Numbered from the stretch's first letter, positions 13,192 through 50,839 are shown. The stretch: 53,396 nucleotides of DNA from an uncultured Candidatus Saccharibacteria bacterium (GCA_964580765.1 CAZOKW010000003.1:1-53396); one strand, 5' to 3'. Made by a program: numbers and translations. Notes: generated by a model from the letters alone, not told the origin.

Positions 13192-14445
13192 ATGTCAAGT
13201 AATCCCCTGAAAAAAATCGCCTTAGTTCATGACTGGCTTTTGGGATTGGGGGGGGCGGAGAGGACACTGAAGGTTCTGCATGAGATGTTTCCCCAAGCGC
13301 CAATTTATACTTTTTTTTACAACAAAAAATTTACCGATAAATTTTTACCGAACGCTCAAATTAGACCCTCCTTCATCCAGAAAATTTGTAAACTAAAAAC
13401 TATAAACTATAAACTATTCTTGCCCCTTCTGCCCATTGCCGCCGAGTCATTTGATTTAAGCCATTTTAATCTGGTCATCTCATCTTCCATCGCCTTTTCC
13501 AAGGGACTGATTTTGAAACCGAAAACAAAACATATCTGCTATTGCTACAGTCCCACTCGATTTTTGTGGGATTGGCACCAGGAATATTTACTTGGAAACG
13601 GGGTTTCCAAGTTAAATAAAGGATGGGGAGTTAAAATACTTCAACATTTTTTAAGAATCTGGGACCGGCAGTCCGCCAATCGGGTGGACCAGTTTGTGGC
13701 TATTTCCAAAACTGTTCAGCAACGCATTAAAAAATATTACGGACGAGATTCGATTGTAATTTATCCGCCAGTTACCAGAATTGAAAGCAGTGTACTCCCT
13801 CGGGACATTGATTTTCCCAGCGAGAAAATCAATTCACTGTCGGCTATGGATTTTGTCCGAAGTGAGGAAATTATACTTCGTCCAAACCATGCAATCCACA
13901 GCCGACAGTGCCCTCTGGAGTACACTGCTTCCAAATCTGATCTCATACCAAATTATTACTTAATCGTTTCCCGTTTATTCCCACACAAAAACATTGATAT
14001 CGCTATCAGGGCCTTTAACAAATTGGAACTGCCTCTGATAATTATCGGCGCTGGGCCGGAATATGGAAAATTAAAAAAAATAATTGAGAACAAGAATATG
14101 ATAAAATTACTGGGAGAGGTGCCGGATACAGAATTAGGAAACTATTACGCCGATACTAAGGCCTTTATCATGCCACAGGAAGAGGACTTTGGCATGACTC
14201 CATTGGAAGCCATGGCCTTTGGCAAACCGGTTCTGGCCTTGCGAAAAGGAGGGGCGCTGGAGTATGTTTTAGAAGGAATCAATGGAGAATTTTTTGACGA
14301 CCCTCATCCCGCCATTTTAGCCGACGGGGTCCGCCGTTTAAACGAAAATTATAAAAATTACAGCCCTTTAGTCATAAAAAAAACTGCGGAAAGATTTTCA
14401 CGCAGTCGGTTTGAAGAGGAGATAAAAAACATTATTTCAAAATGA
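13192..14445 (+). CDS. GT4-family glycosyltransferase with an in-frame palindromic-element insertion
   Basis: N-terminal ALVHDWLLGLGGAERT glycosyltransferase motif. The 141-bp family-4 element at 13788-13928 is a multiple of 3 and keeps the frame. Confidence 0.7.
   Translation: MSSNPLKKIALVHDWLLGLGGAERTLKVLHEMFPQAPIYTFFYNKKFTDKFLPNAQIRPSFIQKICKLKTINYKLFLPLLPIAAESFDLSHFNLVISSSIAFSKGLILKPKTKHICYCYSPTRFLWDWHQEYLLGNGVSKLNKGWGVKILQHFLRIWDRQSANRVDQFVAISKTVQQRIKKYYGRDSIVIYPPVTRIESSVLPRDIDFPSEKINSLSAMDFVRSEEIILRPNHAIHSRQCPLEYTASKSDLIPNYYLIVSRLFPHKNIDIAIRAFNKLELPLIIIGAGPEYGKLKKIIENKNMIKLLGEVPDTELGNYYADTKAFIMPQEEDFGMTPLEAMAFGKPVLALRKGGALEYVLEGINGEFFDDPHPAILADGVRRLNENYKNYSPLVIKKTAERFSRSRFEEEIKNIISK
13788..13928. 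mobile_element. family-4 palindromic element (TIR gcagNNtact...ccctc) inside the GT4 gene
   Basis: Outer inverted repeat gcagtgtactcc / ggagtacactgc. Inner pair cactgtcggctatggat / atccacagccgacagtg. Core ggattttgtccgaagtga...ttcgtccaaaccatgcaatcc is shared with the copy at 50689-50839. Confidence 0.6.
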
Positions 14446-14537
14446 CATCATTACTTTATTCTGAAACCTCTTTCCAGTACCACCTCAATACCAGTCACGC
14501 AAACAACAATCAAACAAAACCATAAAAAAGTTTCCAT

Positions 14538-15512
14538 ATGTCACCTCGTGTTTTTATAATCATTCTCCAGTACAACCATTCCCAAGACACTATTAAGTGC
14601 CTTGATTCGGTTGGGAAATTGACCTACCCCAACTTTCAAACAGTTGTCGTGGACAATGCTTCTCAAAGTTCTGAAAAAGATAATATCAAGAACTACATAA
14701 AAAGTCAAGGCAACATTGTTTTGCTCGAAAATGAAAAAAATTTGGGATACGCCGGAGGAAATAATACCGGAATAAAATACGCTTTAGCCCATGGCGCGGA
14801 TTATGTTTTCATTTTAAATAACGACACGACTGTTCCGCCGGACTTACTTGAGAAATTGGTAAACGAAGGGGAAAGTGACTCTAAAATTGGAATAGTGGGA
14901 CCGGCCATCAAAGAAGGGGATGGGCGAATCGCTTACTACGGAAAAATCTCCTGGCTCAAAGCAGAACTGAAACATGTCTATGGAAAATCAGCCATACACC
15001 TACTCGAAAATTCCCGAGCGACAAGTCGAGGGTCGAGAGTGGGTGGTATGGCTGATTTTCCCGATCGAGTACGAGTATTAGGGCCGAAAGAATATGTCAT
15101 CGGGGCGGGAATGCTTATCAAAAAAGAGGTACTGGAAAAGATAGATGGTTTTGATGAGGTTTACTTTCTATATTTTGAAGATGCCGACCTCTGTCTGCGC
15201 GCCCAATTAGCCGGTTATAAGCTCAAAATTGCCCCAGAAACAATGATTTATCACCAAGGAGCCGCCAGCACCTCTACTCTTGGCAAACCGCTACTTTTAC
15301 GGTACCATATGAGGAACGCTCTGATTTTTAACTCGCTCAACGCGCCTTGGCCAGTTAAGTTTAGTTTAATCTTCTGGTCCAGCTACATTTTACTGAAAAA
15401 CTTTTTGAAAGTTTTTCTTTTGCCATCCAAAGTAACGGCCGGAGAAGCCATCATTGACGGCGTGCTGGATTTTTATAAAAACAACTACGGAAAAATAAAT
15501 ACTCCCAATTAA
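14538..15512 (+). CDS. GT2-family glycosyltransferase with an in-frame family-2 element insertion
   Basis: VVDNASQ, GYAGGNNTG and EDADLCLRAQLAGYKL motifs. The frame is maintained across the 14985-15058 insert, which encodes KSAIHLLENSRATSRGSRVGGMADF. Confidence 0.75.
   Translation: MSPRVFIIILQYNHSQDTIKCLDSVGKLTYPNFQTVVVDNASQSSEKDNIKNYIKSQGNIVLLENEKNLGYAGGNNTGIKYALAHGADYVFILNNDTTVPPDLLEKLVNEGESDSKIGIVGPAIKEGDGRIAYYGKISWLKAELKHVYGKSAIHLLENSRATSRGSRVGGMADFPDRVRVLGPKEYVIGAGMLIKKEVLEKIDGFDEVYFLYFEDADLCLRAQLAGYKLKIAPETMIYHQGAASTSTLGKPLLLRYHMRNALIFNSLNAPWPVKFSLIFWSSYILLKNFLKVFLLPSKVTAGEAIIDGVLDFYKNNYGKINTPN
14985..15058. mobile_element. family-2 RPE-like palindromic element, copy 1, in-frame in the GT2 gene
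   Basis: aaatcagccatacacc...ctcgaaaattcccgagcgacaagtcgagggtcgagagtgggtgg...tatggctgattt with a terminal 16-bp imperfect inverted repeat. Confidence 0.7.
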
Positions 15513-15520
15513 TTAAATTG

Positions 15521-15691
15521 CTAGCTTTCGTTCAAATATGACCGATTGGCTGCAAATTACCGAAGCGGAGTGAAAATTTGGCCGGTAGATTAAAATTCGG
15601 TCCGACTCTTGGAGGGGTACTGAATTTTAGTCGGCAAATTGAGCAAAGCGAGGATAATTTGTCCAAGAGGACATCTTGAAAAGAGAGCTGG
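15521..15691 (+). ncRNA. candidate structured element SE, copy 1, upstream of the GT4 gene
   Basis: Near-identical to 34399-34589 over about 160 nt (ttcaaatatgNNcgattgg...ggaggggtactgaattttagtcggcaaattga...gcgaggataatttgtccaagagg.catcttgaaaagaga). It ends 17 nt before the ATG at 15709. Confidence 0.4.
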
Positions 15692-15708
15692 CAATTTAAT
15701 TAAAAAAT

Positions 15709-16875
15709 ATGTTAAGAATTGGTATAGAGTGCCATGCTCTAGAGGCAAATCGTTGGGGAGTGGGGCACCACTTAGCAAAACTGCTTGAAGAAATTTCTAT
15801 AAAATCTGAACTCGCCAACGAGTTCAGATTTTATCTTTACTTTAAAGGTCGTATTCCTGACGATTCTTACCTTAATAACCCCATCTTTGTAAAAAGAATT
15901 TTAAAACTACCCCTCATTAGTCCATCTTTTAACATTTTTTTTCATTTTCTTTTGCCCCTGGTCTACTTCAGAGACCATCTGCAAGCGGTCTTTTTTGCCG
16001 GTTTTATGTTGCCGGCATTTTTTCTGGGAAAATCATTGGTTCTTCTGACTAGCGACGTCTACTACGAATACACTCAAGGCCAATTGCCATTTCGCTACAA
16101 ATTGAGCTACGCCCTTTTCGCTAATTGGGCCGCTTGGCGCGCCACCAAAATTACCTCTCTATCAAACACGGACAAAGAGGAAATAGTAAAGATGTTTAAA
16201 ATTGCTCCTGAAAAAATCTCAGTCAATTATTTAGGGGTTGACCAAAAGCAGGTGGTTACCTCCCTTTTGCAGTTCGTCGGCGACGAGTCCGACGCAAAAA
16301 AGGGAGGTAACCACCTGCCTTTAAATTATCTTTTGTATGTTGGTCAAGCTTTTCCCCGAAGGAGAGCCAAGGAAACTATTCAATCCTTTGCTATTTTAGC
16401 TCCTAAGTATCCTGATTTAAAATTAATTCTGGTCGGCCAAGATAAATACAATCCGCCCGTTCTGCAAAATTTAGTTAAAGAAACAAACCAAAAACTCGGC
16501 GGGGAAAGAATAATTTATCATGGTTACATAGAAAACGACGATGAACTGCAAAAACTGATGGCCGGAGCAAAATTATTTATTTATCTATCGTCTTCCGAGG
16601 CCTTTGGTATTCCACCCCTGGAAGCACTAGCCGCCGGCGTTCCTCCGATAGTTAAAGACAACGACCTGAATCATGAACTTTATGAAGGCCATGCTTTTTA
16701 TGTGAAAGATGAAAAAGACCCGGTACAAATTGCCCTTGCTCTGGAAAAAGCTCTGACCGATATCGTCCGCCGTCAAGAAATTATTCAAAATTCAGAAAAA
16801 GTAATTTCAAAGTTCAACTGGAAAAATCACGCCGAAAAATTCCTTGAGACCATGAGAGAAATAGTAAAAAATTAA
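15709..16875 (+). CDS. GT4/GT1-family glycosyltransferase
   Basis: C-terminal EAFGIPPLEALAAGVPPIV retaining-GT motif. Confidence 0.7.
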   Translation: MLRIGIECHALEANRWGVGHHLAKLLEEISIKSELANEFRFYLYFKGRIPDDSYLNNPIFVKRILKLPLISPSFNIFFHFLLPLVYFRDHLQAVFFAGFMLPAFFLGKSLVLLTSDVYYEYTQGQLPFRYKLSYALFANWAAWRATKITSLSNTDKEEIVKMFKIAPEKISVNYLGVDQKQVVTSLLQFVGDESDAKKGGNHLPLNYLLYVGQAFPRRRAKETIQSFAILAPKYPDLKLILVGQDKYNPPVLQNLVKETNQKLGGERIIYHGYIENDDELQKLMAGAKLFIYLSSSEAFGIPPLEALAAGVPPIVKDNDLNHELYEGHAFYVKDEKDPVQIALALEKALTDIVRRQEIIQNSEKVISKFNWKNHAEKFLETMREIVKN

Positions 16876-18749
16876 TGCGAGAGGCTCCGGTGGACATACT
16901 TTTGTTCGACGGCGCTACAGGGATTCCGCAACGGGCCACTGCAGACATTGTGGCTACCGTTGCGGAACCTTCCATGCGACACAAAAGTGTCCCCACTCCG
17001 CCTCTGGTAAATATGTTTAAACACTTTGATACTCTTAAAAAACCAGTTAATGTCATCTTCCTAGTCCAAATTGTGGTCGTCTTTTTGGTGGCCTTCGGTG
17101 TCTGGCCAAGAACACTGATAATTCCTTTGACGGCCTTAATCGCCATTTTTATTTTACGAGCCGATTTGGAAACATCCGCTTCTTTTTTTATCCGCTCCAT
17201 ACCACTTTTCGTGGCCATTCCTTTTACCTCTTATTTTGATTCTTTCAATATCTGGCGAATCGCCGGGGGATTGATTTTTTTGAAATGGTTTTATCAATCG
17301 TACAAAGAAAGGATAAGAATAGCGGGCAAATCAGCCATACACCTACTCGAAAATTCCCGAGGAGATTCTATGGGCGGGCTAAAGCACCGCCCACCAGAAA
17401 CTTCTCCTGACAGCGACAGTCGAGGGTCGAGAGTGGGTGGTATGGCTGATTTGCTAGTCATAAAAATTAAAAAATATCCTTTAGCGTCTTTGTTAACGAC
17501 TTTTCTTTTACTTTCCACCCTATCCCTTCTAGCCGCCGAAGATATTTTTACTGGAATCAAAAGAATAATTTATTTAATCAATTTGAGTTTAGTTCCTCTA
17601 GTCGTTTACGACTTGATTAAAAAAAAACCCGCCCTCATCAAAAAGTTCTTAGATAGCATTTTGATTTCTGGAGTAATCGTGGCCGGAGTCGGCATCACCC
17701 AGTTAGTCAGCGCTTACTTAATGCCTTTGGGCGCTTTTCTGGATTTTTGGGGAGGTACGGTTCAGCTTGGCTTTTATGGCTCACAGTGGTCCAGTATCGC
17801 TTTAGAAGGGAACACTTGGTTTGCCTACTTCGGCGACCAACTATCTTTGCGAATTTTTTCAACTTTTACGGACTCTCACTCTTTTCCGGTTTACCTTTTA
17901 ATGACAATTCCAGCTCTCTTGGCTTTAGCTAAACTCACTTGGAAACGGGGTTTCCAAGTGAGTGGAATCGTTCTCCTTGTCTTGTATCTTCTGATTATCC
18001 TAAGCGGCACCCGAGGAATATGGTTAGCCGTTTTAGGACCTTTACTGGCTTGGCCGGTTTTAGTTAATTTTCTAAAAAGGGATGGGGGGAGTTTAGAAAA
18101 AAGTTTGTTAAAAAAACTCGGATTGCTCCTTTTGCCATTTTTTCTTCTTTTCGCCGCCGCTTTTCCTATTATGGGCTCGGACCAATTCTGGGTTGAAAAA
18201 GAAAATAATCAAATTCTGGCCAAACGGATTCGTTCCGTTCTCGATTTGAACGAGACATCAAATAGTGGACGGGTAGAAATCTGGAAAAAAACGGTCAAAT
18301 CAATTATTCACCGTCCGCTCCTGGGGGTGGGGATTGGTAACTTTCCAACTGTTCTTTCTCAGCATACTGACTTGGCCAAAGCCGGCTCTTCTGCGCATAA
18401 TCTCTATCTCCATATTGCCGCCGAAATCGGCCTAGTCGGGCTTTTAGCCGCTTTAGGTATTTTGTTCATAATTTTAAAAAGAAGTTGGGATGTTTTCCGA
18501 AGAGCCAATCAGCCACACCCCCACTCGAAAATTCCCGAGCGAGGAGTCGGGGGTCGAGAGTGGGTCGGTGTGGCTGATTGGCTCACTATTAAAACCTACG
18601 CTGCCGCTTTTGTCCTTTACAGTTTGTGGGTTTTGTTTTACTCTTTAACGGATGCGATAATGTTTGACGAGCGCGTTTTTCTCGTTTTTGCCATTAATTC
18701 AGCCGTTATTTTAGGTCTATATAAAACAAAATCCGCCTTAGCGGATTAA
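16875..18749 (+). CDS. O-antigen ligase (Wzy_C)-like polytopic membrane protein, with two in-frame family-2 element insertions
   Basis: Many TM helices. HNLYLHIAAEIGLVGLL Wzy_C-like motif. The start is uncertain because the first 40 codons overlap a family-1 remnant. Confidence 0.6.
   Translation: MREAPVDILLFDGATGIPQRATADIVATVAEPSMRHKSVPTPPLVNMFKHFDTLKKPVNVIFLVQIVVVFLVAFGVWPRTLIIPLTALIAIFILRADLETSASFFIRSIPLFVAIPFTSYFDSFNIWRIAGGLIFLKWFYQSYKERIRIAGKSAIHLLENSRGDSMGGLKHRPPETSPDSDSRGSRVGGMADLLVIKIKKYPLASLLTTFLLLSTLSLLAAEDIFTGIKRIIYLINLSLVPLVVYDLIKKKPALIKKFLDSILISGVIVAGVGITQLVSAYLMPLGAFLDFWGGTVQLGFYGSQWSSIALEGNTWFAYFGDQLSLRIFSTFTDSHSFPVYLLMTIPALLALAKLTWKRGFQVSGIVLLVLYLLIILSGTRGIWLAVLGPLLAWPVLVNFLKRDGGSLEKSLLKKLGLLLLPFFLLFAAAFPIMGSDQFWVEKENNQILAKRIRSVLDLNETSNSGRVEIWKKTVKSIIHRPLLGVGIGNFPTVLSQHTDLAKAGSSAHNLYLHIAAEIGLVGLLAALGILFIILKRSWDVFRRANQPHPHSKIPERGVGGREWVGVADWLTIKTYAAAFVLYSLWVLFYSLTDAIMFDERVFLVFAINSAVILGLYKTKSALAD
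16878..16918. repeat. truncated family-1 hairpin element (half copy, minus orientation)
   Basis: gaggctccggtggacatacttttgttcgacggcgct matches the left half of the reverse-oriented copy at 36301-36380. Confidence 0.4.
17328..17452. mobile_element. family-2 RPE-like element, copy 2, with a 50-nt internal insertion
   Basis: Same termini aaatcagccatacacc / ggtatggctgattt. The extra internal hairpin is gggcgggctaaagcaccgccc. It is in-frame in the ligase gene. Confidence 0.65.
18505..18581. mobile_element. family-2 RPE-like element, copy 3
   Basis: ccaatcagccacacc / ggtgtggctgattgg is a perfect 15-bp terminal stem with paired compensatory changes (atac to acac, gtat to gtgt). It is read in a different frame from copy 2 within the same ligase gene. 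Confidence 0.65.
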
Positions 18750-18764
18750 GCAAAACATATCAAA

Positions 18765-19022
18765 CTAGCAAGAACGAACAACATTTCTAAAATAACCGTA
18801 TTGACTAAAAGACGATTGCACTTTTGAAATCTTATTTTTCTTTACTAAATTGTCAAGCGCTAATTGTATTTCTTGATCATTTGCAAAGATCAATTTATCT
18901 CTCAATAACGCACCTATGAAATCCAAGGTGGGGTCGCCGCTAGTAGCCAATAGACCGAATATTTCTTCTTCCAGTTCCATCTTTCCAATATCCTTTTTTC
19001 CAACTATAACTTTCCAAGCCAT
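18765..19022 (-). CDS. hypothetical small protein (85 aa)
   Basis: Start assigned at the MAWKV ATG, which has AAGGAG 9 nt upstream. The ORF-track start at 19103 lacks an RBS. Confidence 0.35.
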   Translation of the reverse strand: MAWKVIVGKKDIGKMELEEEIFGLLATSGDPTLDFIGALLRDKLIFANDQEIQLALDNLVKKNKISKVQSSFSQYGYFRNVVRSC

Positions 19023-19090
19023 TAGCCATTTCTCCTTTTGACACAATATCTGTAAAGAACTTTCCCTAATAAAATCATTTAAAACCAAAA

Positions 19091-30065: not shown

Positions 30066-31397
30066 TTATAGGTAATCTAATGGATTTATTGAACCTTCAA
30101 AATAGTTAAAATATAACTGGCCGTTTTTTTCGTTGATATAAGTAAAGAAATCTTTATAAACACTTAGATGTAAATGGGAGCCGGTGGAATTTCCGGTAGA
30201 CCCCTCATAACCGATAACATCACTGGCCGTAACCGCCAAACCATTAACCAAACCGGAAGGAGCGCGCAGATGAGCGTAAACACTGACCAATCCGCCATTG
30301 TGCCGCACAGCCACCCAATGGCCGAAACCATCGTTAAACCCGCTGGCCAAAATATTTCCGGCGGCCATCGGATGAATGGCCGTACCATAACCGCCCGCCA
30401 AATCAATCCCGTTATGAGGAGCGCCACCATAAGGTTTTCGTCTGGAACGGGCATAAGCGGTATATCCGTAACCTTGGGTAATGTGATATTCATCTTCCGG
30501 CCATTGAAAAATTTTAGTTCCCCGCGGAGGAACCGCATCAGCCGTCACATGTACGATAAAAGCCCCAGACTGCAAGGCCTGATCTTCCAAATTCTTTAAT
30601 TCCGCGAAAAACTCCGCTTCTTTCTTCTCCGTTTCCGCCAGTAATTTTTGATACTCCGCCTCCTGCCCCTTGGTCCTGACCAAAAGATTGTTCTTGTTCG
30701 ATTTGGTGCCGCTTAAAGCCACCTGCTGATTCTTCTGTGAATTATTCAACTTTTCCAAATCCTGTTTTTTTATTTCCAGTTCGGTCTTATTTTCTTCCAG
30801 TTCTTGGCGTTCGTTTTTTAAAACAGTAATGGCGGCCAACAAACTCTTGTTTAAATTATCGGCCTGCTTGGCTTGATCCAAAAAATCGGAAAGGTGGTTA
30901 TTTTTCAACAAAATAGCCAGCCAGTTTTCCCGGTCGTTTTGATACATCATTTTCAGTAAACTGCCCACCGTATCTTGACGATTTTTGATCTTTTCGTGCC
31001 GGTCAAAAATTTTATCGCGCAAATCCCCGATTACCAACTGTGTAGAGGAAATCTTATTTCCGGTTATTCTGACTTCCGTTTCCAACCGGCTGATCTGATT
31101 GGTCAAAACGCTTATTTCTTTTTGTAAACTAGTCGCCTCCTTTTGCTTGCCGGAAACAACTTTTTTATATTCATCTGATTTCTTTTGCAGTTCTTCCAAC
31201 TGTTTTCTCAAGTCCAATATTTTCTGATTGACATCTTCCGCCGCCAATCCAGATCCGGAATAAAAAAAGAAAGAGAAGAAAACGACCAGGCAAATCAGCC
31301 ATACACCTACCTGAAAACTCCCGAGCGACAAGTCGAGGGTCGAAGGTAGGTTGTATTGCTGATTTGCTAAAAATTTACTTTTGAATTGCTTTTTCAA
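30066..31397 (-). CDS. M23 family metallopeptidase with coiled-coil region (EnvC-like)
   Basis: Long coiled-coil. C-terminal HNGIDLA...GSTGNSTGSHLHLSV M23 motifs. The N-terminal 35 codons are encoded by the family-2 element copy at 31292-31365. Confidence 0.7.
   Translation of the reverse strand: MKKQFKSKFLANQQYNLPSTLDLSLGSFQVGVWLICLVVFFSFFFYSGSGLAAEDVNQKILDLRKQLEELQKKSDEYKKVVSGKQKEATSLQKEISVLTNQISRLETEVRITGNKISSTQLVIGDLRDKIFDRHEKIKNRQDTVGSLLKMMYQNDRENWLAILLKNNHLSDFLDQAKQADNLNKSLLAAITVLKNERQELEENKTELEIKKQDLEKLNNSQKNQQVALSGTKSNKNNLLVRTKGQEAEYQKLLAETEKKEAEFFAELKNLEDQALQSGAFIVHVTADAVPPRGTKIFQWPEDEYHITQGYGYTAYARSRRKPYGGAPHNGIDLAGGYGTAIHPMAAGNILASGFNDGFGHWVAVRHNGGLVSVYAHLRAPSGLVNGLAVTASDVIGYEGSTGNSTGSHLHLSVYKDFFTYINEKNGQLYFNYFEGSINPLDYL
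31292..31365. mobile_element. family-2 RPE-like element, copy 4, antisense within the 5' end of the M23 peptidase gene
   Basis: aaatcagccatacacctacc...cccgagcgacaagtcgagggtcgaaggtaggttgtattgctgattt. Confidence 0.6.
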
Positions 31398-34398: not shown

Positions 34399-34589
34399 AG
34401 TACCCACCCATCTTTTTTCAAATATGGTCGATTGGTTGCAAATTACCGAAGCGGAGTGAAAATTTGGCCGGTAGATTAAAATTCGGTCCGACTCTTGGAG
34501 GGGTACTGAATTTTAGTCGGCAAATTGAACGGAGCGAGGATAATTTGTCCAAGAGGGCATCTTGAAAAGAGAGGGGTGGGGACGGAGCT
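34399..34589 (+). ncRNA. candidate structured element SE, copy 2, upstream of fmt
   Basis: About 95% identical to copy 1. The 5' end gtacccacccatcttttttcaa is complementary to the 3' end cttgaaaagagaggggtggggac. It ends 9 nt before the fmt ATG. Confidence 0.4.
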
Positions 34590-34597: not shown

Positions 34598-35488
34598 ATG
34601 AAAATTATTTTCTTTGGAACTTTTCAGTACGCCGTTCCGGCTTTGGAACGGTTAATTAAGGCCGGCTATGAGATTGTGGCCGTTGTCACTAACCCCGATT
34701 CTTTTCAGGGAAGAAAGAAAGAATTGGTGGCCAGTCCCGTCAAACTCGCCGCCCAGCAATACGGCTTAACTGTTTTTCAGCCTCCCAGTTTGAAAATTGG
34801 AAAATTAGAAAATTATTTGGAAATTGAAAATTTTAAATTGAAAATTAAATCCGCCGATCTGGGCATCGTCGTAGCCTACAGCAAAATAATCCCAAAAGAA
34901 ATTTTGGGATTATTTCCTAAAGGTGTTTTGAACATTCACCCCTCTCTCCTGCCCCTTTACCGGGGTCCCTCCCCTATTCAGTCGGCTATTTTAAACGGAG
35001 AAAAAGAAACGGGAGTAACCATTATGCAAATTGACGAAGAAGTGGATCACGGGGCCATTTTATCTCAAGCCAAATATGTAATTCCTCCCGAAGCGCTCCA
35101 CCCCCAAATTGCCATGGAAATTTTCCAGTTAGGAGCAGAACTTTTAATTAAAACTATCCCCGATTGGCTGGCTGGAAAAATCATCCCCCAGCCCCAAGAA
35201 CACACTTGTGCCACTTTTACTAAAAAATTCTCCTGGGAAAACGGGCGAATTGATTGGAATCAGCCGGCGGAAAAAATATATAACCAAATCCGCGCCCTCA
35301 ATCCTGAACCCGGCACCTGGACCACTTGGAAACGGGGTTTCCAAGTGAAAATCTTGAAAATATTAAAAGCCGAAATCGGAGAGGATGGAAAAGTACTTCC
35401 TCAAGAAGTCCAACCGGAAGGCAAAAAAGCCATGCCTTTCCAAGATTTCCTCCGTGGAGTTGGCCAAAAAGAACTGGATTTTAAATAG
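34598..35488 (+). CDS. fmt: methionyl-tRNA formyltransferase
   Basis: IIFFGT and HPSLLPLYRGPSPIQ SLLP-type motifs. There is a low-complexity AT-rich insertion LKIGKLENYLEIENFKLKIKS at 34795-34860. Confidence 0.85.
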   Translation: MKIIFFGTFQYAVPALERLIKAGYEIVAVVTNPDSFQGRKKELVASPVKLAAQQYGLTVFQPPSLKIGKLENYLEIENFKLKIKSADLGIVVAYSKIIPKEILGLFPKGVLNIHPSLLPLYRGPSPIQSAILNGEKETGVTIMQIDEEVDHGAILSQAKYVIPPEALHPQIAMEIFQLGAELLIKTIPDWLAGKIIPQPQEHTCATFTKKFSWENGRIDWNQPAEKIYNQIRALNPEPGTWTTWKRGFQVKILKILKAEIGEDGKVLPQEVQPEGKKAMPFQDFLRGVGQKELDFK

Positions 35489-42624: not shown

Positions 42625-42737
42625 GTTTGCTTCGCAAACTAGTTTATAAAGTTCGTAAAGTTCTTCAAGTTTATCAAGTAAGATTCTTTTTCAACTTCTT
42701 TACTTTATAAACTTGATGGACTTTATAACTTGATAAA

Positions 42738-43493
42738 CTAATTTAACTCGTTCATTTTTTTTGTTATGTATTTTAACAAAGATAGATTTCTGTGATAAGC
42801 CATGCGCATCGGCCCAATGACGGCCGAGACACCTTCATGCCCCTCCGGCAACGGATAGCGGGCAATAATTATGGCCTCTTTTTGAGTATGCTTATGGGGA
42901 TTTTCCCGGCCAATATAGACCACTAATTCTTTGGGGCCTTGTCCCAAAAACTGACTGAAATAATTTTCAAATTCATCAAAGATATTTCCAAAACCGAAAA
43001 AGTCATCCCTCTCCCTCGCCTCGCTGGAGCTCCGGCGAAGCGGGTCGAACTCCGGCGATTCCAAAATATTGGAAAACCCCATGCGATAAAATTCGTTGGT
43101 GTCGGCAAGACCGCTAATCACAAAATCATCCACCAGGTTAGACATGGTTTTGGCCAAACCGGAACTGATGGCATGCGCTTCACGGGGAGAATGCTCAATG
43201 GCCCGGTCAATCGCTCGGCGGTCCTGCGCCGGCAAGTCGCCGGTTTTTTCTTTTTCCTGAAGCAATTTATCCACAAAAAAACGGTAGGCCTTGTCGGTTG
43301 GCACCCGCCCGGCGGAAGTATGGGGCTGGCGAAGATAACCATCCTTTTCCAATCCCATCATCTCCGCCCGCAAAGTGGCCGGACTGCAGTCAAACCCGCA
43401 TTTTTCCGCCAAAAAACTTGAGCTGATTGGTTCGGCCTTTTTGACATATTCTTTAATTAAGACCTGGAGTATTTCCTCCTGCCTGGAAGTCAT
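42738..43493 (-). CDS. hrcA: heat-inducible transcription repressor HrcA
   Basis: N-terminal winged-helix ILQVLIKEYVKKAEPISSSFLAEKCGFDCSPATLRAEMMGLEKDGYL. Sits directly upstream of clpB. Confidence 0.85.
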   Translation of the reverse strand: MTSRQEEILQVLIKEYVKKAEPISSSFLAEKCGFDCSPATLRAEMMGLEKDGYLRQPHTSAGRVPTDKAYRFFVDKLLQEKEKTGDLPAQDRRAIDRAIEHSPREAHAISSGLAKTMSNLVDDFVISGLADTNEFYRMGFSNILESPEFDPLRRSSSEARERDDFFGFGNIFDEFENYFSQFLGQGPKELVVYIGRENPHKHTQKEAIIIARYPLPEGHEGVSAVIGPMRMAYHRNLSLLKYITKKMNELN

Positions 43494-44049: not shown

Positions 44050-45303
44050 GTGGGCAAACTCAAAAAATTTTGGCGGTGGATGGGGCCTGGCCTGATCACC
44101 GGCGCGGTGGACGATGACCCCTCCGGTATCGCCACTTACTCCATCGCCGGAGCTAAAGCCGGTTTTTCTGTTTTGTGGACCATGCTTTATAGTTTGCCGA
44201 TGATGATTGCTCTGCAAGAAATGAGCGGGCGCATCGGACTGACTTCCCGTTGCGGTTTGGCCGGCAACCTCAAGCGCTACTATCCTAAACAGCTTTTGGT
44301 TATTTTCGCGGCCTTAATCGTCGTAGCTAATGTCTTTAACATCGGCGCTGATATCTCCGGCATGGCCGCCGCGATTAATCTTCTTTTGCCTAATTCTCAT
44401 CAACTAATTTCCATAATTTTGGTCACCGGAGTTATTTTTCTGACGGTAGTCATGCCTTATCGCAAAATGGTTCTGATTTTTAAGTGGCTCTCGCTTTCTT
44501 TGGGAGCATACATCATCGCCGGACTAATCGCCGTTAACAACTGGCCAGTCGTATTTTTAAAAACCCTTGTCCCCCACCTGGAATTTAATAAGGACTTTTT
44601 TATCCTGCTTCTGGCCATTCTTGGCACAACCATCTCTCCCTATCTTCCGGTCTGGCAGGCCAACGAAGAAGCGGAAGAAAAAAAGCTTGACGGCCAAGTC
44701 ACTCGCATCTGCAAATTCAGAACGGTAGCCGGCAAAGAACTTTCCCATGCGAATAAAGAAGACATTTTTGGCATGTTTTTCTCCAACCTCATCGGATTTT
44801 TTATCATCGCCCTGACCGGTTCGGTGATTTTCGGCGCCGGATTGCAAAACATCGAGACAATCAAAGAAGCCGCCGAAGCGCTCCGCCCTTTAGCCGGGCC
44901 TTACGCCTACTGGTTATTTGCTTTTGGCTTGATTAGCGCCGGCTTGTTGGCCATCCCCATTTTGGCCGGCTCAGCCGCCTATGTTATATCCGAGGCCTTT
45001 GGCTGGGAAGCCAGTTTGGACAAGCCATTCAATAAAGCGAAAGGGTTTTATTTAGTAATAATTATTGCTACCGTTTTGGGACTGGGAATCACCTATTTAG
45101 GCATCAGCCCCATCAAGGCCTTGTTTTATACGGCTATTCTTCACGGATTGGTGGGACCGGTGCTGATTGGCGCCCTTATTCACATGTCCAACAATCCCAA
45201 AATTGTCGGCCCAAATAAAAGTAGCCACCTGAATAATTTCTTCGCTTATACTGCTATGGTTCTGCTAACAGTCGGAGCGGTATTTTTCTTTACTACTTTG
45301 TGA
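44050..45303 (+). CDS. mntH: NRAMP-family divalent cation transporter (MntH-like, variant DPSG motif)
   Basis: GPGLITGAVDDDPSGIATYS stands where the canonical motif is DPGN. Eleven or so TM helices. Confidence 0.7.
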   Translation: MGKLKKFWRWMGPGLITGAVDDDPSGIATYSIAGAKAGFSVLWTMLYSLPMMIALQEMSGRIGLTSRCGLAGNLKRYYPKQLLVIFAALIVVANVFNIGADISGMAAAINLLLPNSHQLISIILVTGVIFLTVVMPYRKMVLIFKWLSLSLGAYIIAGLIAVNNWPVVFLKTLVPHLEFNKDFFILLLAILGTTISPYLPVWQANEEAEEKKLDGQVTRICKFRTVAGKELSHANKEDIFGMFFSNLIGFFIIALTGSVIFGAGLQNIETIKEAAEALRPLAGPYAYWLFAFGLISAGLLAIPILAGSAAYVISEAFGWEASLDKPFNKAKGFYLVIIIATVLGLGITYLGISPIKALFYTAILHGLVGPVLIGALIHMSNNPKIVGPNKSSHLNNFFAYTAMVLLTVGAVFFFTTL

Positions 45304-46739
45304 TGAAAATCTACAACACTCTAACCAAACAAAAAGAAGAGTTCATTCCGCGAGAAGGCAAAAAAATTAAAATGTTTGTCTGCGGACCGACCGTTTATGA
45401 TTACATCCACATCGGCAACGCCCGCTCGTTTGTTTTTTTTGATGTGGTGGCTAAATACCTCCGCCACAGCGGATACGAGGTGGAATACATCCAAAATATC
45501 ACGGATATTGATAACAAGATTATTGAGCGCGCCCAAGAAGAAAACATCAATCCGTTGGAATATGCCAAGAAATACAGCGAAATTTTCCAAGAAGATATGC
45601 GGTCTTTGGGAGTTACTTCTCCGGAATATAAAAACGCCACTGACCATATTCCGGAAGTTATAAAACAGGTCCAAACTTTGCTGGACAAAGGCAACGCCTA
45701 TATAATTGATAACGACCCCGAACCACAACAAGTTGGCTACGGGGCAGGCGGTATATATTTTGATTTATCAACTTTCCCCGACTATGGAAAACTTTCCGGC
45801 CGAACTGCCAAGATGGCCGACGACGCCGTCAGCCGGATAGATGAAAATGACCAAAAAAGAAATAAAGGTGACTTTTGCTTATGGAAAATATCCAAACCTG
45901 GAGAACCATCCTGGGAAACTGAACTTGGGAAAGGCAGACCGGGATGGCATATCGAAGACACCGCCATTACCGAAAAATATTTCGGTCCGCAATATGACCT
46001 GCACGGCGGAGGGCAGGATTTAATCTTCCCCCACCACGAAGCGGAAATCGCTCAACAAGAATCCGCCTCCGGCCTAAAACCTTTTGTAAAATACTGGATG
46101 CACAGCGGATTTCTGGTTAATAAAGAAAAAAAAATGTCCAAGTCGTTGGGAAATTTTTTGACTCTGAACGAAGCCCTAAAAAATTATTCCCCTGAAACCC
46201 TCCGCTTTTATTTCCTAAGTGCCCACTACCGCTCCCCGCTTGATTTCAGCGAAGAAATTCTCAAACAAGCCGAAGCGGCGGTAGCTAGGCTCGGAGAATT
46301 TAAATATAAAATAAAAATCATAGCCGAAACAGAAGAGAAAGGTGGAATTATTTCGGATGATACTTTCAATAAATTTTTCAACGATTTAACAAAAAACTTT
46401 CAAGAAGGAATGAACGATGATTTCAATACACCCAAAGCTTTGGCTAGTTTATTTCAAGCTGTTAAGAACTGGCATCTTATTTCAAGCGGCGGGGTTATAT
46501 CAAAAGACAGAGCCAAGGAAATAATAACCATTCTTGCAGAAATAAACCAAATTCTTGGAGTAATCCCAGAGAAAGTTATTAAAATCAGCAAAAAGATGGA
46601 GAACTTAATCGAAGAAAGAGAAAAAGCCCGGGAAACAAAGGACTTCGCCGTCGCCGACCAACTCCGTTCCCAAATTGAATCTCTCGGCTATCAAATCGAC
46701 GACACGATTTATGGGCCTTTGGTGAAGAAAAAGGGATAA
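45300..46739 (+). CDS. cysS: cysteinyl-tRNA synthetase
   Basis: CGPTVYDYIHIGNAR (HIGN) and KMSKSLGN (KMSKS) motifs. Confidence 0.9.
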   Translation: MMKIYNTLTKQKEEFIPREGKKIKMFVCGPTVYDYIHIGNARSFVFFDVVAKYLRHSGYEVEYIQNITDIDNKIIERAQEENINPLEYAKKYSEIFQEDMRSLGVTSPEYKNATDHIPEVIKQVQTLLDKGNAYIIDNDPEPQQVGYGAGGIYFDLSTFPDYGKLSGRTAKMADDAVSRIDENDQKRNKGDFCLWKISKPGEPSWETELGKGRPGWHIEDTAITEKYFGPQYDLHGGGQDLIFPHHEAEIAQQESASGLKPFVKYWMHSGFLVNKEKKMSKSLGNFLTLNEALKNYSPETLRFYFLSAHYRSPLDFSEEILKQAEAAVARLGEFKYKIKIIAETEEKGGIISDDTFNKFFNDLTKNFQEGMNDDFNTPKALASLFQAVKNWHLISSGGVISKDRAKEIITILAEINQILGVIPEKVIKISKKMENLIEEREKARETKDFAVADQLRSQIESLGYQIDDTIYGPLVKKKG

Positions 46740-46751
46740 AAAAGCCCAGGA

Positions 46752-46782
46752 GGTCATGAGTGAAATGTTTCACCTCACGACC
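46752..46782. terminator. hairpin between the convergent cysS and flotillin genes
   Basis: ggtcatgagtgaaatgtttcacctcacgacc, about a 14-bp stem with one mismatch. Confidence 0.4.
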
Positions 46783-46802
46783 CCCATGGGTTAGGACTAC
46801 GA

Positions 46803-48812
46803 CTAGGTGTCTGTGGAAACAACAACCTCGCCGTTAGTTGGTTGCCCCGGAATCACGGCAGGAACCGTGGACTCTGGAATTGAAGCCGGCTTCATGTGTT
46901 TCAGAAAGCCGAACATCCCAGCACTGATGGCCGCCATTGGATCTGTTCCGCCGGCTCCACCTTGAACAAGAATGTCGGGAACGAATCGTGTCGCACTTCT
47001 TACGAGCGCGTTCACAACGTTCACTATCGCCGTCCCTTCGGCACCAAGAGCAGCAACCTGCTCCTTGTATCCCAGGGCCTGAGCTAGACCAGTGGCCTCG
47101 ATTTCGACGGCCTTGGCACGGCCGACCTCTCTGAGATAAGTGGCTTCGCCCCTGGCCGTCTCAACCCTGGCATTGGCCTTATTCTTTTCGATTGTGATCT
47201 CGACCTCTGAAGTGGCCAGATCTTTCTGCTTGTCGGCGAGACCCGTCGCTTTCTCCATATCAAGACGCTTTTCCTGAGATTCCTTCTGCTTTTCGAAGGT
47301 CTTGATCTCCTGATTTGCAATCTCACGTTCCTGGAGAACAACGACGATATCCGGAGGGAGGACGACATCCTGAATGTAGACACCGCGCGTCTCCACATTG
47401 TATTTTTGAATCTGCTCAGCAATGTACGCCTGAGCCGTTACCTGAACTTCAGCACGCTTCTCGATGAAATCGATTGCTCCCATGCCCTGGAGCTGGTCGC
47501 GGAAGTAGTTGCCGACGACCGCCTGCAGAACTTCGTTGACAAGGTTCTGCATTGTGCCAACCATGGAGATGACTTTGGGAGCCATCTTGTCGGCCACATG
47601 GATCTGAACCTGAAGGTCGATCTTGAAGACGAACCCTTCCTTCGATTTGGCTTCAATCTGGCTCAAACCCTTGTCCAGGTTATGTGCCTGGGAAGTGGCC
47701 GCAGCCCAATTGAGAGTCAAGATCGCCGTAGGAACGACCTCCGCAGAGTAGATCCGCGGATTGATGGCGTACTTGCCTGTGCGCAAAGGTTCCTGCCAGA
47801 TACCGCGATGACCCGGCTTAACGATCGAACCAAATTTGAACTCTGCGCCGGATGTGTCCTCGGTGGGCAGACCGACCGCGGCCTTGATAACCGCCACTTC
47901 GCCCTGCTTCACGACGAGCATCGGCACGGTCTCTACCCTAACGAGGTAAGGATTGACTGTGTACGCGCCGTAGAGAAGCGGGTCGTGCTGAAGACCGATC
48001 TTGCCGCCGTTGTCCAGAAAGGCCTGGAAGTCCTGGTAGTTGTTGTGGAGGTTGTTCTTATTACCGATGAGCACATCGGCAATATCCGAATCGCTCTTGT
48101 GCTCATCCTCCATCTTTTTTACATCATCAAAACGGCCAAGACGCCCGGCCATATCACCAGATGCGAGTGGGTCACCCTCGTTGGTGGTCACAATCCCCAC
48201 CATATCGATGGTCTTTCCGTCATCGCGTCTCGGCTCAATCAATGTCAGCTTCAGGTCTTCCGACTTGACACCAAAGTGTTCGGGACCGAACCTCCCATCA
48301 CGATATTGCTCGTTCACAGGCAACCCGAATTGCTTGCTTTTGGTCATGACGAGAAATGCGATGGGGTGAAGAGGCAGAAGTGCACCAGGAGGTAGCACGG
48401 GACGCTGAACGCCCTGCTGACCACCGTTTTCGAGAAATATCCGTAGGTCGGTGAATTGACCAAATTCAGATTTGTAGATGGCGGACTTGGCCCCTGTCGG
48501 TAACGGGCCGCCAATCTGCGACACAACGAGGCCAATCTCTCCCGGGGGAATCTGTACCCAAGGATGCCTTTCTACTTTGTAAAGGGGCCAAAGTTTGAAC
48601 GGAATGCCTGACATGAGCAGGTCGGCTTGGTAGCCGGACTCGCCGGTCAGGGAAATAGGCCCCGAGGATGTCTTCGTCTTGCCAAAACGCTTGGTAACAA
48701 GACCGACCTGGTCGGGGCCTATCTTGTGAAATGACATTGCAACGGTAAAAATGACCGCCACTGCCACCACAAGAAATGGTGAGTACCAAATCCACGAAAT
48801 CAAAGTTTCCAT
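46803..48812 (-). CDS. flotillin/SPFH-domain protein with EA-repeat coiled-coil; GC-rich (about 60%) gene
   Basis: N-terminal TM helix, SPFH domain, long E/A/Q-rich coiled-coil (EVQVTAQAYIAEQIQKYN...). A 60-nt sample at 47041-47100 is 62% GC against about 40% for the window. Confidence 0.75.
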   Translation of the reverse strand: METLISWIWYSPFLVVAVAVIFTVAMSFHKIGPDQVGLVTKRFGKTKTSSGPISLTGESGYQADLLMSGIPFKLWPLYKVERHPWVQIPPGEIGLVVSQIGGPLPTGAKSAIYKSEFGQFTDLRIFLENGGQQGVQRPVLPPGALLPLHPIAFLVMTKSKQFGLPVNEQYRDGRFGPEHFGVKSEDLKLTLIEPRRDDGKTIDMVGIVTTNEGDPLASGDMAGRLGRFDDVKKMEDEHKSDSDIADVLIGNKNNLHNNYQDFQAFLDNGGKIGLQHDPLLYGAYTVNPYLVRVETVPMLVVKQGEVAVIKAAVGLPTEDTSGAEFKFGSIVKPGHRGIWQEPLRTGKYAINPRIYSAEVVPTAILTLNWAAATSQAHNLDKGLSQIEAKSKEGFVFKIDLQVQIHVADKMAPKVISMVGTMQNLVNEVLQAVVGNYFRDQLQGMGAIDFIEKRAEVQVTAQAYIAEQIQKYNVETRGVYIQDVVLPPDIVVVLQEREIANQEIKTFEKQKESQEKRLDMEKATGLADKQKDLATSEVEITIEKNKANARVETARGEATYLREVGRAKAVEIEATGLAQALGYKEQVAALGAEGTAIVNVVNALVRSATRFVPDILVQGGAGGTDPMAAISAGMFGFLKHMKPASIPESTVPAVIPGQPTNGEVVVSTDT

Positions 48813-48887
48813 ACACTTCTCTTTCTACTATTTAAGGCATAGCTGCCATTTGAATTGTTTACGAACTAGGACCAATTGATGTTGAAT

Positions 48888-48918
48888 AGTATACTATATT
48901 ACTAATAAACTTGTCAAG
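48888..48918 (-). promoter_or_regulatory. sigma70-like promoter TTGACA-N19-TATACT for the flotillin gene
   Basis: Minus strand reads ttgacaagtttattagtaatatagtatact, about 75 nt upstream of the start at 48812. Confidence 0.4.
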
Positions 48919-48961
48919 ACCAGGTAGAAAATCGTCATTACTCCACATCTTATCCCCTTTT

Positions 48962-48985
48962 AAATTCCGTTGTGCGGAATTTTTT
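48962..48985 (+). terminator. rho-independent terminator-like hairpin
   Basis: aattccgttgtgcggaatt followed by ttttt. Confidence 0.4.
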
Positions 48986-49032
48986 ATTATAATGAGGCGA
49001 CCCATTAGAGTGCTTAAAGAATTTCAAGCGCA

Positions 49033-49291
49033 GTCCCACCCACCTTCTTTTCAAATATGAGCTCGCCGGCATAAATAAACGAAGATTTCTGAAATCAAGC
49101 CGGTAATAAAAATTGGGTCCGATGGTTTCGAGGGGTACTGAATTTTTGTCGGCTTGATGCGGTTAAAGTGAATTGTTTCACTTTAACCCCGAATTTTAGT
49201 CCGAGCTCCTGCGAGGACGTTAGGAAATTCGGAAAACCTTTTTATTGGCACGGCGAGTGATTCTTGAAAAGAGGTGGGTGGGGACGGAGCG
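49033..49291 (+). ncRNA. candidate structured element SE, copy 3 (divergent, with an extra internal hairpin), upstream of dnaB
   Basis: Shares ttcaaatatg, gccgg, ggtccga...gaggggtactgaatttt.gtcggc, gcgagga and cttgaaaagagg with copies 1 and 2. The 5' end gtcccacccaccttcttttcaa pairs with the 3' end cttgaaaagaggtgggtggggac. The inserted perfect hairpin is gttaaagtga/tcactttaac. Confidence 0.4.
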
Positions 49292-49318
49292 ATTTAGTTT
49301 CAATACTATCCAAACAAC

Positions 49319-50683
49319 ATGCCACAAAAGACCTCACAAATTTTTAATAACAGCCAGCTACCTCCGCAGAACATTGAAGCCGAGAAATCCACTCTCGGAG
49401 CTATTTTGTTGGATAAAGAAGCCCTCAACCAAGTGGTTGACTTTCTCCGTCCGGAAGATTTCTATAATCGCGCCCACCAGTTGATTTTCGGCGGCATGGC
49501 CGCGCTTTTCGAAAAAAGAGAGCCGATTGACCTTTTAAGTTTATCCAACAAACTGGACGAAATGGGGCAGTTAGAAGCCATCGGGGGAACCGGCTATCTC
49601 ACCTCGCTAATCAATACCGTTCCGAGTTCCTCTCACATCCTTCACTACGCCAAAATAGTGGAAAGAAAAAAGATTCTGCGGGACTTGATTGACTCGGCCC
49701 ATCACATTATCGGCCTAAGCAATCAAGAGGAAGAAGAAATTGATATTATTTTAGACCAGGCCGAACAAAAGTTATTTTCCATTTCCCAAAAATCAACCCC
49801 CTCAACTTTTGCCCACATCGGCGGCCCGATCATCAAAGAGGCCTTTGAACGCATTGATCGCCTGCACAAAGGCGACGGCAAACTACGCGGACATTCTACC
49901 GGTTTTTACGATCTGGATGGCTATTTGGGCGGCCTGCAAAAGTCCGACTTAATCGTTTTAGCCGCTCGTCCCTCTTTGGGTAAAACCAGTTTGGCTTTAG
50001 ATATTGCCAAACATGTTGCCCAGCACGAAAAAGTACCGGTTGGCATTTTCAGCATAGAAATGGCCAAAGAACAGATCGTGGACCGTTTGATCTGCGCCGA
50101 AGCCAACATCAATTTATGGAAACTGCGCACCGGCCGTTTGTCTTCGGAGGGAGACGGTAATGATTTTGAAAAAGTGGCCGTCGCCCTGGACCGCCTCGCT
50201 CAAGCCCCCATTTTCATTGATGATGTCCCCTCGCCCACTATTTTACAGATGCGCACCATGGCCCGCCGTTTACAAGCCGAACACGGTCTGGGTTTGCTGG
50301 TGGTTGATTACTTGCAGCTCATCCGGCCCACCAGAGCATCCGACAGCGAGGTCCAACAGGTGACGGAAATTTCCCGCAATCTTAAAGCCCTGGCCAAAGA
50401 GTTGAATATACCCATTCTGGCCGTTTCCCAGCTTTCCCGTAATTCCGAAATGCGCACTGACCAGCGGCCGAAGTTATCTGACCTGCGTTCTTCCGGCAGT
50501 ATTGAACAGGACGCCGATGTGGTGCTCTTGATCTACCGCGAGGATAAAGTTAAAAAAGATACCGAAAAAAAAGGGATTGCCGAAATTATGATTGAAAAAC
50601 ATCGCAACGGCCCTACCGGTAAAGTAGAGTTGTTTTTCGACGAAGAGAGCGTCTCGTTTAAAAATCTGGCTAAAGGGATATAA
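49319..50683 (+). CDS. dnaB: replicative DNA helicase
   Basis: N-terminal NIEAEKSTLGAILLD, Walker A AARPSLGKTSLALDIA, and the RecA-like C-terminal domain. Confidence 0.9.
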   Translation: MPQKTSQIFNNSQLPPQNIEAEKSTLGAILLDKEALNQVVDFLRPEDFYNRAHQLIFGGMAALFEKREPIDLLSLSNKLDEMGQLEAIGGTGYLTSLINTVPSSSHILHYAKIVERKKILRDLIDSAHHIIGLSNQEEEEIDIILDQAEQKLFSISQKSTPSTFAHIGGPIIKEAFERIDRLHKGDGKLRGHSTGFYDLDGYLGGLQKSDLIVLAARPSLGKTSLALDIAKHVAQHEKVPVGIFSIEMAKEQIVDRLICAEANINLWKLRTGRLSSEGDGNDFEKVAVALDRLAQAPIFIDDVPSPTILQMRTMARRLQAEHGLGLLVVDYLQLIRPTRASDSEVQQVTEISRNLKALAKELNIPILAVSQLSRNSEMRTDQRPKLSDLRSSGSIEQDADVVLLIYREDKVKKDTEKKGIAEIMIEKHRNGPTGKVELFFDEESVSFKNLAKGI

Positions 50684-50688
50684 GTTTC

Positions 50689-50839
50689 GCAGATACTGCC
50701 CTCTTCAGTACGCTCACTCCGCCAGCGTCTCCGTTCGCTCGCGGCGTCTGGGGATTTTGTCCGAATTGAAAGAGATTAATTATAATTCGTCCAAACCATG
50801 CAATCCCCATCCTTAGCGACTTCAGAGGGCAGTATCTGC
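50689..50839. mobile_element. family-4 palindromic element (TIR gcagatactgccctcttcag / cttcagagggcagtatctgc) in the dnaB-recR spacer
   Basis: 16-20-bp terminal inverted repeats. Core ggattttgtccgaattga...ttcgtccaaaccatgcaatcc is shared with 13788-13928. Confidence 0.6.

Follow-up and report, generated by a model that had tools for sequence, protein, structure and literature searches.

Four copies of a palindromic repeat lie within a 53,396-nt stretch of DNA from an uncultured Candidatus Saccharibacteria bacterium (GCA_964580765.1, CAZOKW010000003.1:1-53396). This whole stretch is called the window below, and its coordinates are used for the four copies, which are named A, B, C, and D. The family to which they belong is marked by a conserved three-way junction enclosed by an outer stem whose sequence varies between copies. 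It seems fairly probable (about 0.6 in our estimate) that it is a non-autonomous palindromic repeat, specific to the candidate phyla radiation (CPR; Patescibacteria), that is maintained at the level of DNA and folds into the same junction on either strand. A preliminary description of the window had reported two of the copies, one within a GT4 glycosyltransferase gene and one between dnaB and recR, and both are present; copies C and D were overlooked by it, and all four are matched by a covariance model (R1) built from 45 copies of the family.

12751-12972, plus strand: copy D, MreB-GT4 spacer, extended four-way-junction variant (R1 score 48.8-59.1 bits, E 3e-12 to 2e-14)
13776-13939, plus strand: copy A, full palindrome, inside the GT4 gene (R1 score 128 bits, E 1e-35)
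50682-50844, plus strand: copy B, dnaB-recR spacer (R1 score 105 bits, E 8e-29)
51565-51728, minus strand: copy C, recR-rplU spacer, 18 nt downstream of rplU (R1 score 76.7 bits, E 2e-20)

The core that was reported to be shared by copies A and B is borne out by two strings, GGATTTTGTCCGAANTGA and TTCGTCCAAACCATGCAATCC, which are exact at both sites and have chance expectations of 0.31 and 0.00, respectively. When copies A and B are folded as RNA and compared with shuffled sequences, either strand gives z-scores of -9.3 to -9.7, and the DNA of copy A folds into mirror-image junctions on its two strands (z of -9.8 and -13.2 against shuffled sequences).

The census that the preliminary description proposed yielded many more copies. 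The first search used a degenerate pattern of the core, in which GGATTT, ATTATA, and ACC..GCAATCC were demanded; it found 53 loci in a genome collection, about 47 of them true, and all of the true ones lie in metagenome-assembled genomes (MAGs) of Patescibacteria. These hosts are labeled Yanofskybacteria, Paceibacteria, Buchananbacteria, and Minisyncoccia, with some labeled Saccharibacteria; the names of the window's proteins put it with 'Parcubacteria group bacterium Gr01-1014_44', and its closest relatives are labeled Candidatus Yanofskybacteria. One MAG has at least ten matches to the core pattern and another has eight. With another pattern, different from the first, 61 loci were found in metagenomes. 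When model R1 was run over 383-385 kb of CPR genome loci, 69 matches had E<=1e-3 and 66 of these had E<=1e-5; a single locus of 5-8 kb holds as many as three copies. The metagenome loci (295 kb) gave 58 matches. In all, the model detects 124 copies, each 146-222 bp long, in ~680 kb of genomic and metagenomic DNA of Patescibacteria. The first core pattern has 0 matches in IMG/VR viral contigs, and on this ground a phage vehicle was rejected. In a comparison of the window and 12 copy-bearing loci with Rfam 15, nothing reached the gathering score and only chance-level matches appeared at E<=10, so a known RNA family was rejected. A literature search found no description of such repeats in CPR bacteria; the family is apparently undescribed and seemingly specific to this group. 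It is a solid repeat family with an unusual mode of evolution, yet on present evidence it is no categorically new system.

The conserved junction and its variable arms

The junction consists of three helices, P1, P2, and P3. P1 is the outer stem, formed in every copy by 12-35 bp of paired termini, and it is often broken by a symmetric internal loop with (C/T)TC opposite T(A/C)C. In P2, a stem of 5-7 bp is capped by the loop CCAGCGA, the most conserved motif of the family that does not depend on the search patterns. P3 leads to an inner hairpin, GGATT-UUG followed by a 2x2 mismatch and a stem with a loop ending in ATTATA, and carries a 3' bulge, ACC..GC, before AATCC. Among 19 R1 matches that lie outside the first pattern, the CCAGCGA loop, GGATT, and GCAATCC are kept, and ATTATAC is usually kept. 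It is this junction that identifies the family; the GCAG..TACT..CCCTC terminus, which had been proposed as the hallmark, is restricted to the subfamily of copy B and, loosely, to copy A.

In copy A the internal helices are as follows.

13810-13830, plus strand: P2 hairpin, GATTTTC-CCAGCGA-GAAAATC, with the loop CCAGCGA at 13817-13823
13835-13910, plus strand: P3 stem, in which 13835-13852 pairs with 13893-13910

P3 of this copy encloses the inner hairpin GGATTTTG-UC-CGAAG...ATTATA...CTTCG-UC-CAAA, and its 3' bulge, ACCATGC, lies before AATCC. The extent first given for copy A, 13788-13928, is the inner part of the palindrome, whose perfect 12-bp arms are GCAGTGTACTCC (13787-13798, one nucleotide earlier than first reported) and GGAGTACACTGC (13917-13928); the outer arms extend from 13776 to 13798 and from 13917 to 13939 (23 nt, 91% complementary). 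Copy B has arms of 16-21 bp (50689-50709 and 50819-50839) and, as had been reported, fills its spacer, which is 172 nt long between the end of dnaB at 50683 and the start of recR at 50856. The arms of copy C are 34 nt long, and its inner stem is divergent, with compensatory changes. The outer arms of copy D (12751-12774 and 12949-12972) are 24 nt long and 96% complementary, and an extra hairpin of ~58 nt (about 12868-12925) is inserted 5' of its GCAATCC.

Copy D is one of a subfamily with four-way junctions, in which an extra hairpin of ~60 nt stands before GCAATCC. Its other members are listed here by locus; L-numbers denote loci that hold copies, or the corresponding loci of relatives.

L016, 2206-2410: four-way-junction copy
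L045, 2046-2243 and 4340-4546: two four-way-junction copies
L049, 3929-4147: four-way-junction copy
L013, 1736-1987: four-way-junction copy
L060, 1353-1566: four-way-junction copy

The loop of the extra hairpin is conserved and of the type ATCTTATTCGAAACGAATGGGCT in L016, L045, L049, and L013, but copy D and L060 do not share it; this hairpin may represent either an additional domain or a small element nested in the larger one. Nested insertions within the element are also present in L043 and L030. Arms are shared across loci only in sub-subfamilies, namely copy B with L021 and the group L008/L036/L037/L048. Copies of the main subfamily that share a genome have nearly identical cores and differ more in P1 than in P2, and the P2 stems occur as a few discrete paired versions (GAATTC, GCAACC, GTCCGC, GTCAGC, and others). 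The idea that P1 is a pre-existing target hairpin into which a smaller core inserted was rejected for the inner part of P1, because P1-like hairpins never stand alone in 517 kb of sequence and because P1 is common to different loci of a subfamily; the outermost layers of P1 are ambiguous in this respect.

All helices covary, and they do so almost exclusively by exchange of Watson-Crick pairs. Standard pairs occupy 88.8% of cells in a plain MAFFT alignment (A5) and 93.9% in an alignment fitted to the model (A7, which by its construction leans toward the structure), compared with 67 and 65% after shuffling, respectively, and 33-47% in both when the partners are slid. Changes on both sides of the pair are found at 29 of 36 pairs in A5 and 34 of 36 in A7. 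The pair types are distributed as follows.

Alignment A5: Watson-Crick 1375; G.U and U.G 54; A.C and C.A 46
Alignment A6: Watson-Crick 2048; G.U and U.G 61; A.C and C.A 55
Alignment A7: Watson-Crick 1774; G.U and U.G 37; A.C and C.A 49

G.U pairs are about as rare as A.C pairs, and hence there is no asymmetry between the strands. Nor are the copies biased in orientation relative to the neighboring genes: in co-directional spacers 45 are sense and 35 antisense, and a further 14 lie in convergent and 7 in divergent spacers, which matches the background spacers (418 co-directional, 70, and 69). The median gap between a copy and the neighboring open reading frame (ORF) is 17.5 nt, and the composition of the flanks reveals no T-run 3' of the stem. 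The almost purely Watson-Crick pairing, the equivalence of the two strands, and the unbiased orientation argue for complementarity that is kept at the DNA level and against selection on a strand-specific RNA. An outward promoter was considered, since ATTATA reads TATAAT on the other strand, and was rejected because no -35-like hexamer was seen by inspection at a distance of 16-18 nt.

The copy within the GT4 gene

Copy A lies, as the preliminary description stated, in frame within a GT4 gene, and the reading frame is stop-free across the insert.

13192-14445, plus strand: GT4 glycosyltransferase, 417 aa (Pfam Glycos_transf_1, Glyco_trans_1_4, and Glyco_transf_4)

The orthologues of this gene are syntenic, in the order MreB-GT4-GT2, and comparison with them (P-numbers denote GT4 orthologues) identifies copy A as an insertion in which the reading frame has been kept. 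The insert is at the same place in P0002 (locus L001; 80% identical) and P0003. P0004 (locus L002) has only the left arm and the P2 hairpin, the remainder having been lost in an internal deletion that spans 35 codons (105 nt) and leaves the frame intact, and P0005, P0008, P0012, P0015, P0024, P0037, and others lack the insert. A lack of further copies together with the same 47-aa segment in an orthologous GT4, which had been named as the outcome contrary to a mobile element, was not found. The interdomain linker in which the insert lies (about columns 270-370 of alignment A3) is a hot spot for insertions, and unrelated inserts of 30-70 aa are present there in at least seven orthologues (P0011, P0013, P0014, and P0016-P0019).

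Translation of the insert most likely yields a disordered loop of ~49 aa, and the peptide in this region (GT4 residues about 195-250) includes DFVRSEEIILRPNHAIHSR. In an AlphaFold (AF2) model made from a 26-sequence alignment (mean pLDDT 75.5) both Rossmann-like domains are predicted with confidence, and residues 199-247 (nt 13786-13932) are without secondary structure and have pLDDT values below 50. That the insert is translated rather than removed is suggested by the conservation of the frame in all lineages. A search of 1.84 billion representative proteins with the 49-aa insert gave no match at E<=0.001, a result that is uninformative for weak matches. Intragenic copies are rare: the 2 among 109 evaluable copies represent one orthologous event, that in GT4, and only 7-24% of copies are stop-free in any given frame. 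The GT4 copy may be a rare survivor of intragenic insertion, one that happened to be in frame and stop-free in a permissive linker between two Rossmann domains.

The orthologous copies of the window and L001 allow the parts of the element to be compared with their host gene. The element core (113 nt) is 88.5% identical between the two, the flanking GT4 coding DNA is 74-80% identical, and third codon positions of GT4 are 54-63% identical. The P1 arms, at about 31% identity, are unalignable, yet they are self-complementary in each lineage. In L001 the palindrome has CCGCCAGTCGGCGAGTATAT... in its 5' part and ...ATATACTCGCCGACTGGCGG in its 3' part, and its outer arms (10566-10590 and 10694-10718) reach into the codons for Tyr-Pro-Pro-Val that are conserved in the host gene; the downstream arm repeats the host's codons for Pro-Pro-Val, CCGCCAGTC, in inverted orientation and now encodes ..ADWRP... 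A transposase that binds the terminal inverted repeats (TIRs) is disfavored by unalignable arms around a core that is 88.5% identical. The arms may have been rewritten in concert by template switching or by arm-to-arm copying, and the core would have been held constant by element-level selection, gene conversion, or a host function.

A different, short hairpin family of the form AAGG(C/T)TCGACC...GGTCGA(A/G)CCTTGAA occupies the same linker of the GT4 gene in L003 (about 10590-10640), also in frame, where it encodes the peptide KRFD...SNLE; it is a perfect palindrome with 21-bp arms inside the gene. In relatives the same short family stands in the dnaB-recR and recR-rplU spacers that lack copies B and C (L060, 2940-3000 and 3615-3700; L061, 2925-3000 and 3630-3680).

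Gain, loss, and origin of the repeat

Three of the window's copies are missing from the same spacers in relatives. Copy C is absent from the recR-rplU spacer of L059 (whose RecR is 89% identical to that of the window), L060, and L061 (RecR 78 and 75% identical); copy B is absent from the dnaB-recR spacer of L060, L061, and L062; and copy D is absent from the MreB-GT4 spacer of L001, L002, and L003. For copy D the filled site in the window, ...AAGATAG[D]AAAAAGCGCGGGG, can be set against the empty site in L002, ...GAGATAA|AAAAGCGCGGGG, and no clear duplication is apparent. A copy in L021, from another MAG, is 91% identical to copy B and has the same arms; it is treated as non-orthologous because tblastn searches of L021 with the window's DnaB and RecR gave no match, and the possibility that it is the orthologue of copy B was rejected on this ground. 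Locus L055, of a distant Minisyncoccia MAG, holds a copy from another subfamily (944-1104) a short way downstream of rplU (1147-1461), placed and oriented as copy C is; since closer relatives lack it, recurrent insertion at this spacer is suggested.

Several contigs break off within the element and overlap there by 141 identical nt, in one MAG (L021, 4338-4471, and L049, 5190-5323) and in metagenome contigs L080, L082, and L113; 141 is also the k-mer size given in the names of these contigs. This signature of a branch in an assembly graph at k = 141 suggests that identical copies are present at several loci of one genome. The repeat appears to fragment metagenome assemblies, and its copy number is probably underestimated.

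The preliminary description called for a search for target-site duplications at the borders, and none was found. For direct repeats of k = 3 to 8 flanking 112 copies, the observed numbers are close to those expected, and an excess at k = 2 is explained by the recurrent internal loop TC..TC. A TA or CTAT duplication, plausible by eye in the main subfamily, is unsupported by these systematic counts. There is a weak flank preference for (C/T)TC, which appears to be part of the element's own internal loop. Clustering of 463 flanking ORFs gave housekeeping families only and no recurring transposase-like family, and no IS200-like ORF was found by tblastn or blastp in the copy-bearing loci with an approximate IS200 TnpA query. 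An IS200/RAYT partner is unsupported in these loci, with only housekeeping families among the flanking ORFs.

The reading preferred here is that of a repeat which spreads as DNA without an enzyme of its own. The copies are found in almost every kind of spacer between genes, whichever way round, and they come and go among related species. Their stems, and P1 most of all, change rapidly and remain Watson-Crick complementary while the core stays nearly constant, and the arms can grow by inverted copying of flanking host sequence. Spread would depend on a trans-acting activity that recognizes the folded core in single-stranded or cruciform DNA, and a transposase that binds conserved termini is not the proposed route. 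Template switching at the hairpin, or the copying of one arm from the other, would restore the complementarity of the arms.

Several observations weigh against this reading. The core is more conserved than host coding DNA at an orthologous locus, which is unlike pure junk and calls for element-level selection, gene conversion, or a host function. No mobilizing enzyme, target motif, or target-site duplication was found in the loci examined, and transposition is therefore deduced from the distribution of copies. The invariance of GGATTT, ATTATA, and ACC..GCAATCC in alignment A5 is in part a product of the first pattern, which required them, and the pattern-independent matches number only 19. A more ambitious proposal is that the core is the recognition module of a structure-guided CPR mobility or maintenance system, or else a DNA or RNA structure that is under selection for some role in the cell, and that the arms are rewritten by template switching, which captures inverted host coding sequence. 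We regard this as unlikely, though if it were true the family would represent a class of bacterial repeat with a new mechanism and not a decayed MITE (miniature inverted-repeat transposable element).

A classical MITE would be an internally deleted insertion sequence (IS) whose TIRs are bound by a DDE transposase encoded elsewhere and which duplicates its target site on insertion. The length below 500 bp, the 12-35-bp inverted termini, the many copies, their mostly intergenic location, the stable hairpin, and the subfamilies with shared arms (B/L021; L008/L036/L037/L048) would all suit such an element, and direct repeats decay in old MITEs (PMC10969869). Here, however, the termini are the least conserved part and the invariant parts are internal loops and bulges, no direct repeat of at least 3 nt exceeds chance in 112 copies, the filled and empty sites of copy D differ without duplication, and the 463 flanking ORFs include no transposase-like family, so that we consider this origin very unlikely. 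A structure that benefits the host and is selected at each locus, such as a site for a nucleoid or topology protein, a stabilizer of mRNA ends, or a bidirectional terminator or insulator, would account for a core that outconserves coding DNA at the orthologous locus, for loop and bulge motifs that are invariant across CPR classes, and for the proximity of copies to gene ends (the 17.5-nt median gap), and a function in either orientation would suit a symmetric hairpin. Yet in close relatives the corresponding spacers have no copy B, C, or D, one copy lies inside a coding region, there is no T-run after the stem, and the contig ends with identical overlaps suggest recent copying; such a role therefore seems distinctly unlikely. 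If the copies were genes for structured non-coding RNAs, or a ribozyme-like motif, whose unpaired nucleotides are conserved around a three- or four-way junction, this would explain the strong covariation in every helix, the conserved loops and bulges, the optional extra domain with its own conserved loop, and a folding z of about -9.5. The scarcity of G.U pairs, which are as rare as A.C, the equivalence of the strands, the lack of orientation bias relative to transcription, and the lack of an Rfam match all speak the other way; moreover, with perfect outer helices of 20-35 bp that stand 0-20 nt from the flanking ORFs, a promoter or terminator could not be accommodated, and no sigma70-like spacing was seen by inspection around the TATAAT complement. 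An RNA gene is thus a most improbable explanation.

Comparison with described repeats leads to a similar position. MITEs are non-coding, multi-copy elements of <500 bp with TIRs of about 4-30 bp, flanking direct repeats, and related autonomous IS elements (PMC10969869). The present family agrees in size, copy number, and hairpin stability, and it has inverted termini, though their sequence differs between copies; it departs from MITEs in having no target-site duplication, and no parent insertion sequence was found in the loci examined. With variable TIRs, no duplication, no recurring transposase among the flanking ORFs, and rare in-frame insertion, the element is MITE-like in a loose sense only. 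Some bacterial MITEs (Correia, ERIC, RUP, BOX, and QMITE) have no known parent insertion sequence (PMC10969869). Like the CPR family, they are small, non-coding, multi-copy, mostly intergenic repeats with inverted termini and stable predicted hairpins, but the CPR termini diverge fastest, no duplication accompanies them, and the conserved loops and bulges are internal and branched. Rickettsia palindromic elements (RPEs) are about 100-150 bp long, have no known transposase or target duplication, and can lie in frame in housekeeping genes at fold-compatible sites (PMC10969869). The CPR repeats resemble RPEs in being dispersed in a small reduced genome, conserved at orthologous loci, and readable in frame at a permissive site, and a fold-compatible insertion site holds for the GT4 copy in its predicted interdomain loop. 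They differ in being overwhelmingly intergenic (1 intragenic event among 109 copies) and in having no conserved open frame (7-24% of copies open per frame); RPEs have hosts of a different phylum, and no sequence relation between the two families was seen. We know of no description of a three-way-junction core with variable termini for RPEs.

HUH Y1 transposases (RAYT and IS200/IS605) recognize folded hairpins of single-stranded DNA and make no target-site duplication. Fold recognition, insertion without duplication, and structure-preserving evolution, which the REP/REPIN-RAYT systems and PATEs offer, form the working model for the CPR family. The CPR family nevertheless has no GTAG/CGTC-tagged unit of 20-40 nt, no Y1-like ORF was found in its copy-bearing loci, and REPINs have conserved ends and a variable center, the reverse of the arrangement found here. 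Integron attC sites likewise have boxes at their ends, a variable center, and gene cassettes, whereas the CPR copies lie among housekeeping genes. Palindromic repeats of organelles (in Volvox and other green-algal mitochondrial and plastid DNA, and the GC clusters of yeast mitochondria) spread without a dedicated transposase. They, too, are hairpins that occupy the intergenic DNA of compact genomes and occasionally enter coding regions, but they are short, simple hairpins with no branched conserved core and no bacterial host.

Other palindromic repeats and significance of the family

The preliminary description counted this family as the third palindromic one in the window, and repeat and palindrome scans agree that the window holds several others. 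A hairpin family with the arms GCAAATCAGCCATAC and GTATGGCTGATTTGC is present at 14982-15061, 17326-17454, 18502-18584, and 31290-31367, and all four copies lie inside long ORFs (14538-15512, 16875-18749, which has two, and 30066-31397 on the minus strand); this family is far more RPE-like than the three-way-junction family. A perfect 23-nt palindrome, ACTTGGAAACGGGGTTTCCAAGT, occurs at 13590-13612, 17937-17959, and 35324-35346, each time within an ORF, and its copy in GT4 coincides with a second low-confidence loop of the AF2 model (residues about 130-140). A long intergenic palindromic family with the motif CTTGAAAAGAGGTGGGTGGGGAC is found at 15509-15703, 34417-34589, 49012-49294, and 51466-51506, and a 157-nt stretch shared by two of its copies is 96% identical. 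Finally, AAGTTCATA-like units with a 9-nt period form palindromic arrays in two intergenic regions (7818-7904 and 42636-42751), which are related to each other on both strands.

CPR genomes of ~1 Mb are usually called streamlined, yet the window and its relatives carry several families of hairpin repeats, which occupy spacers and in places even interrupt the sequence of housekeeping genes. Metagenomic assemblies appear to break at such repeats, annotated proteins gain disordered loops from them, and their covariation invites mistaking them for structured RNAs. With more than 100 diverse copies and a clear signature, the three-way-junction family offers a tractable case in which the transposase-less spread of RPE-like repeats may be studied.

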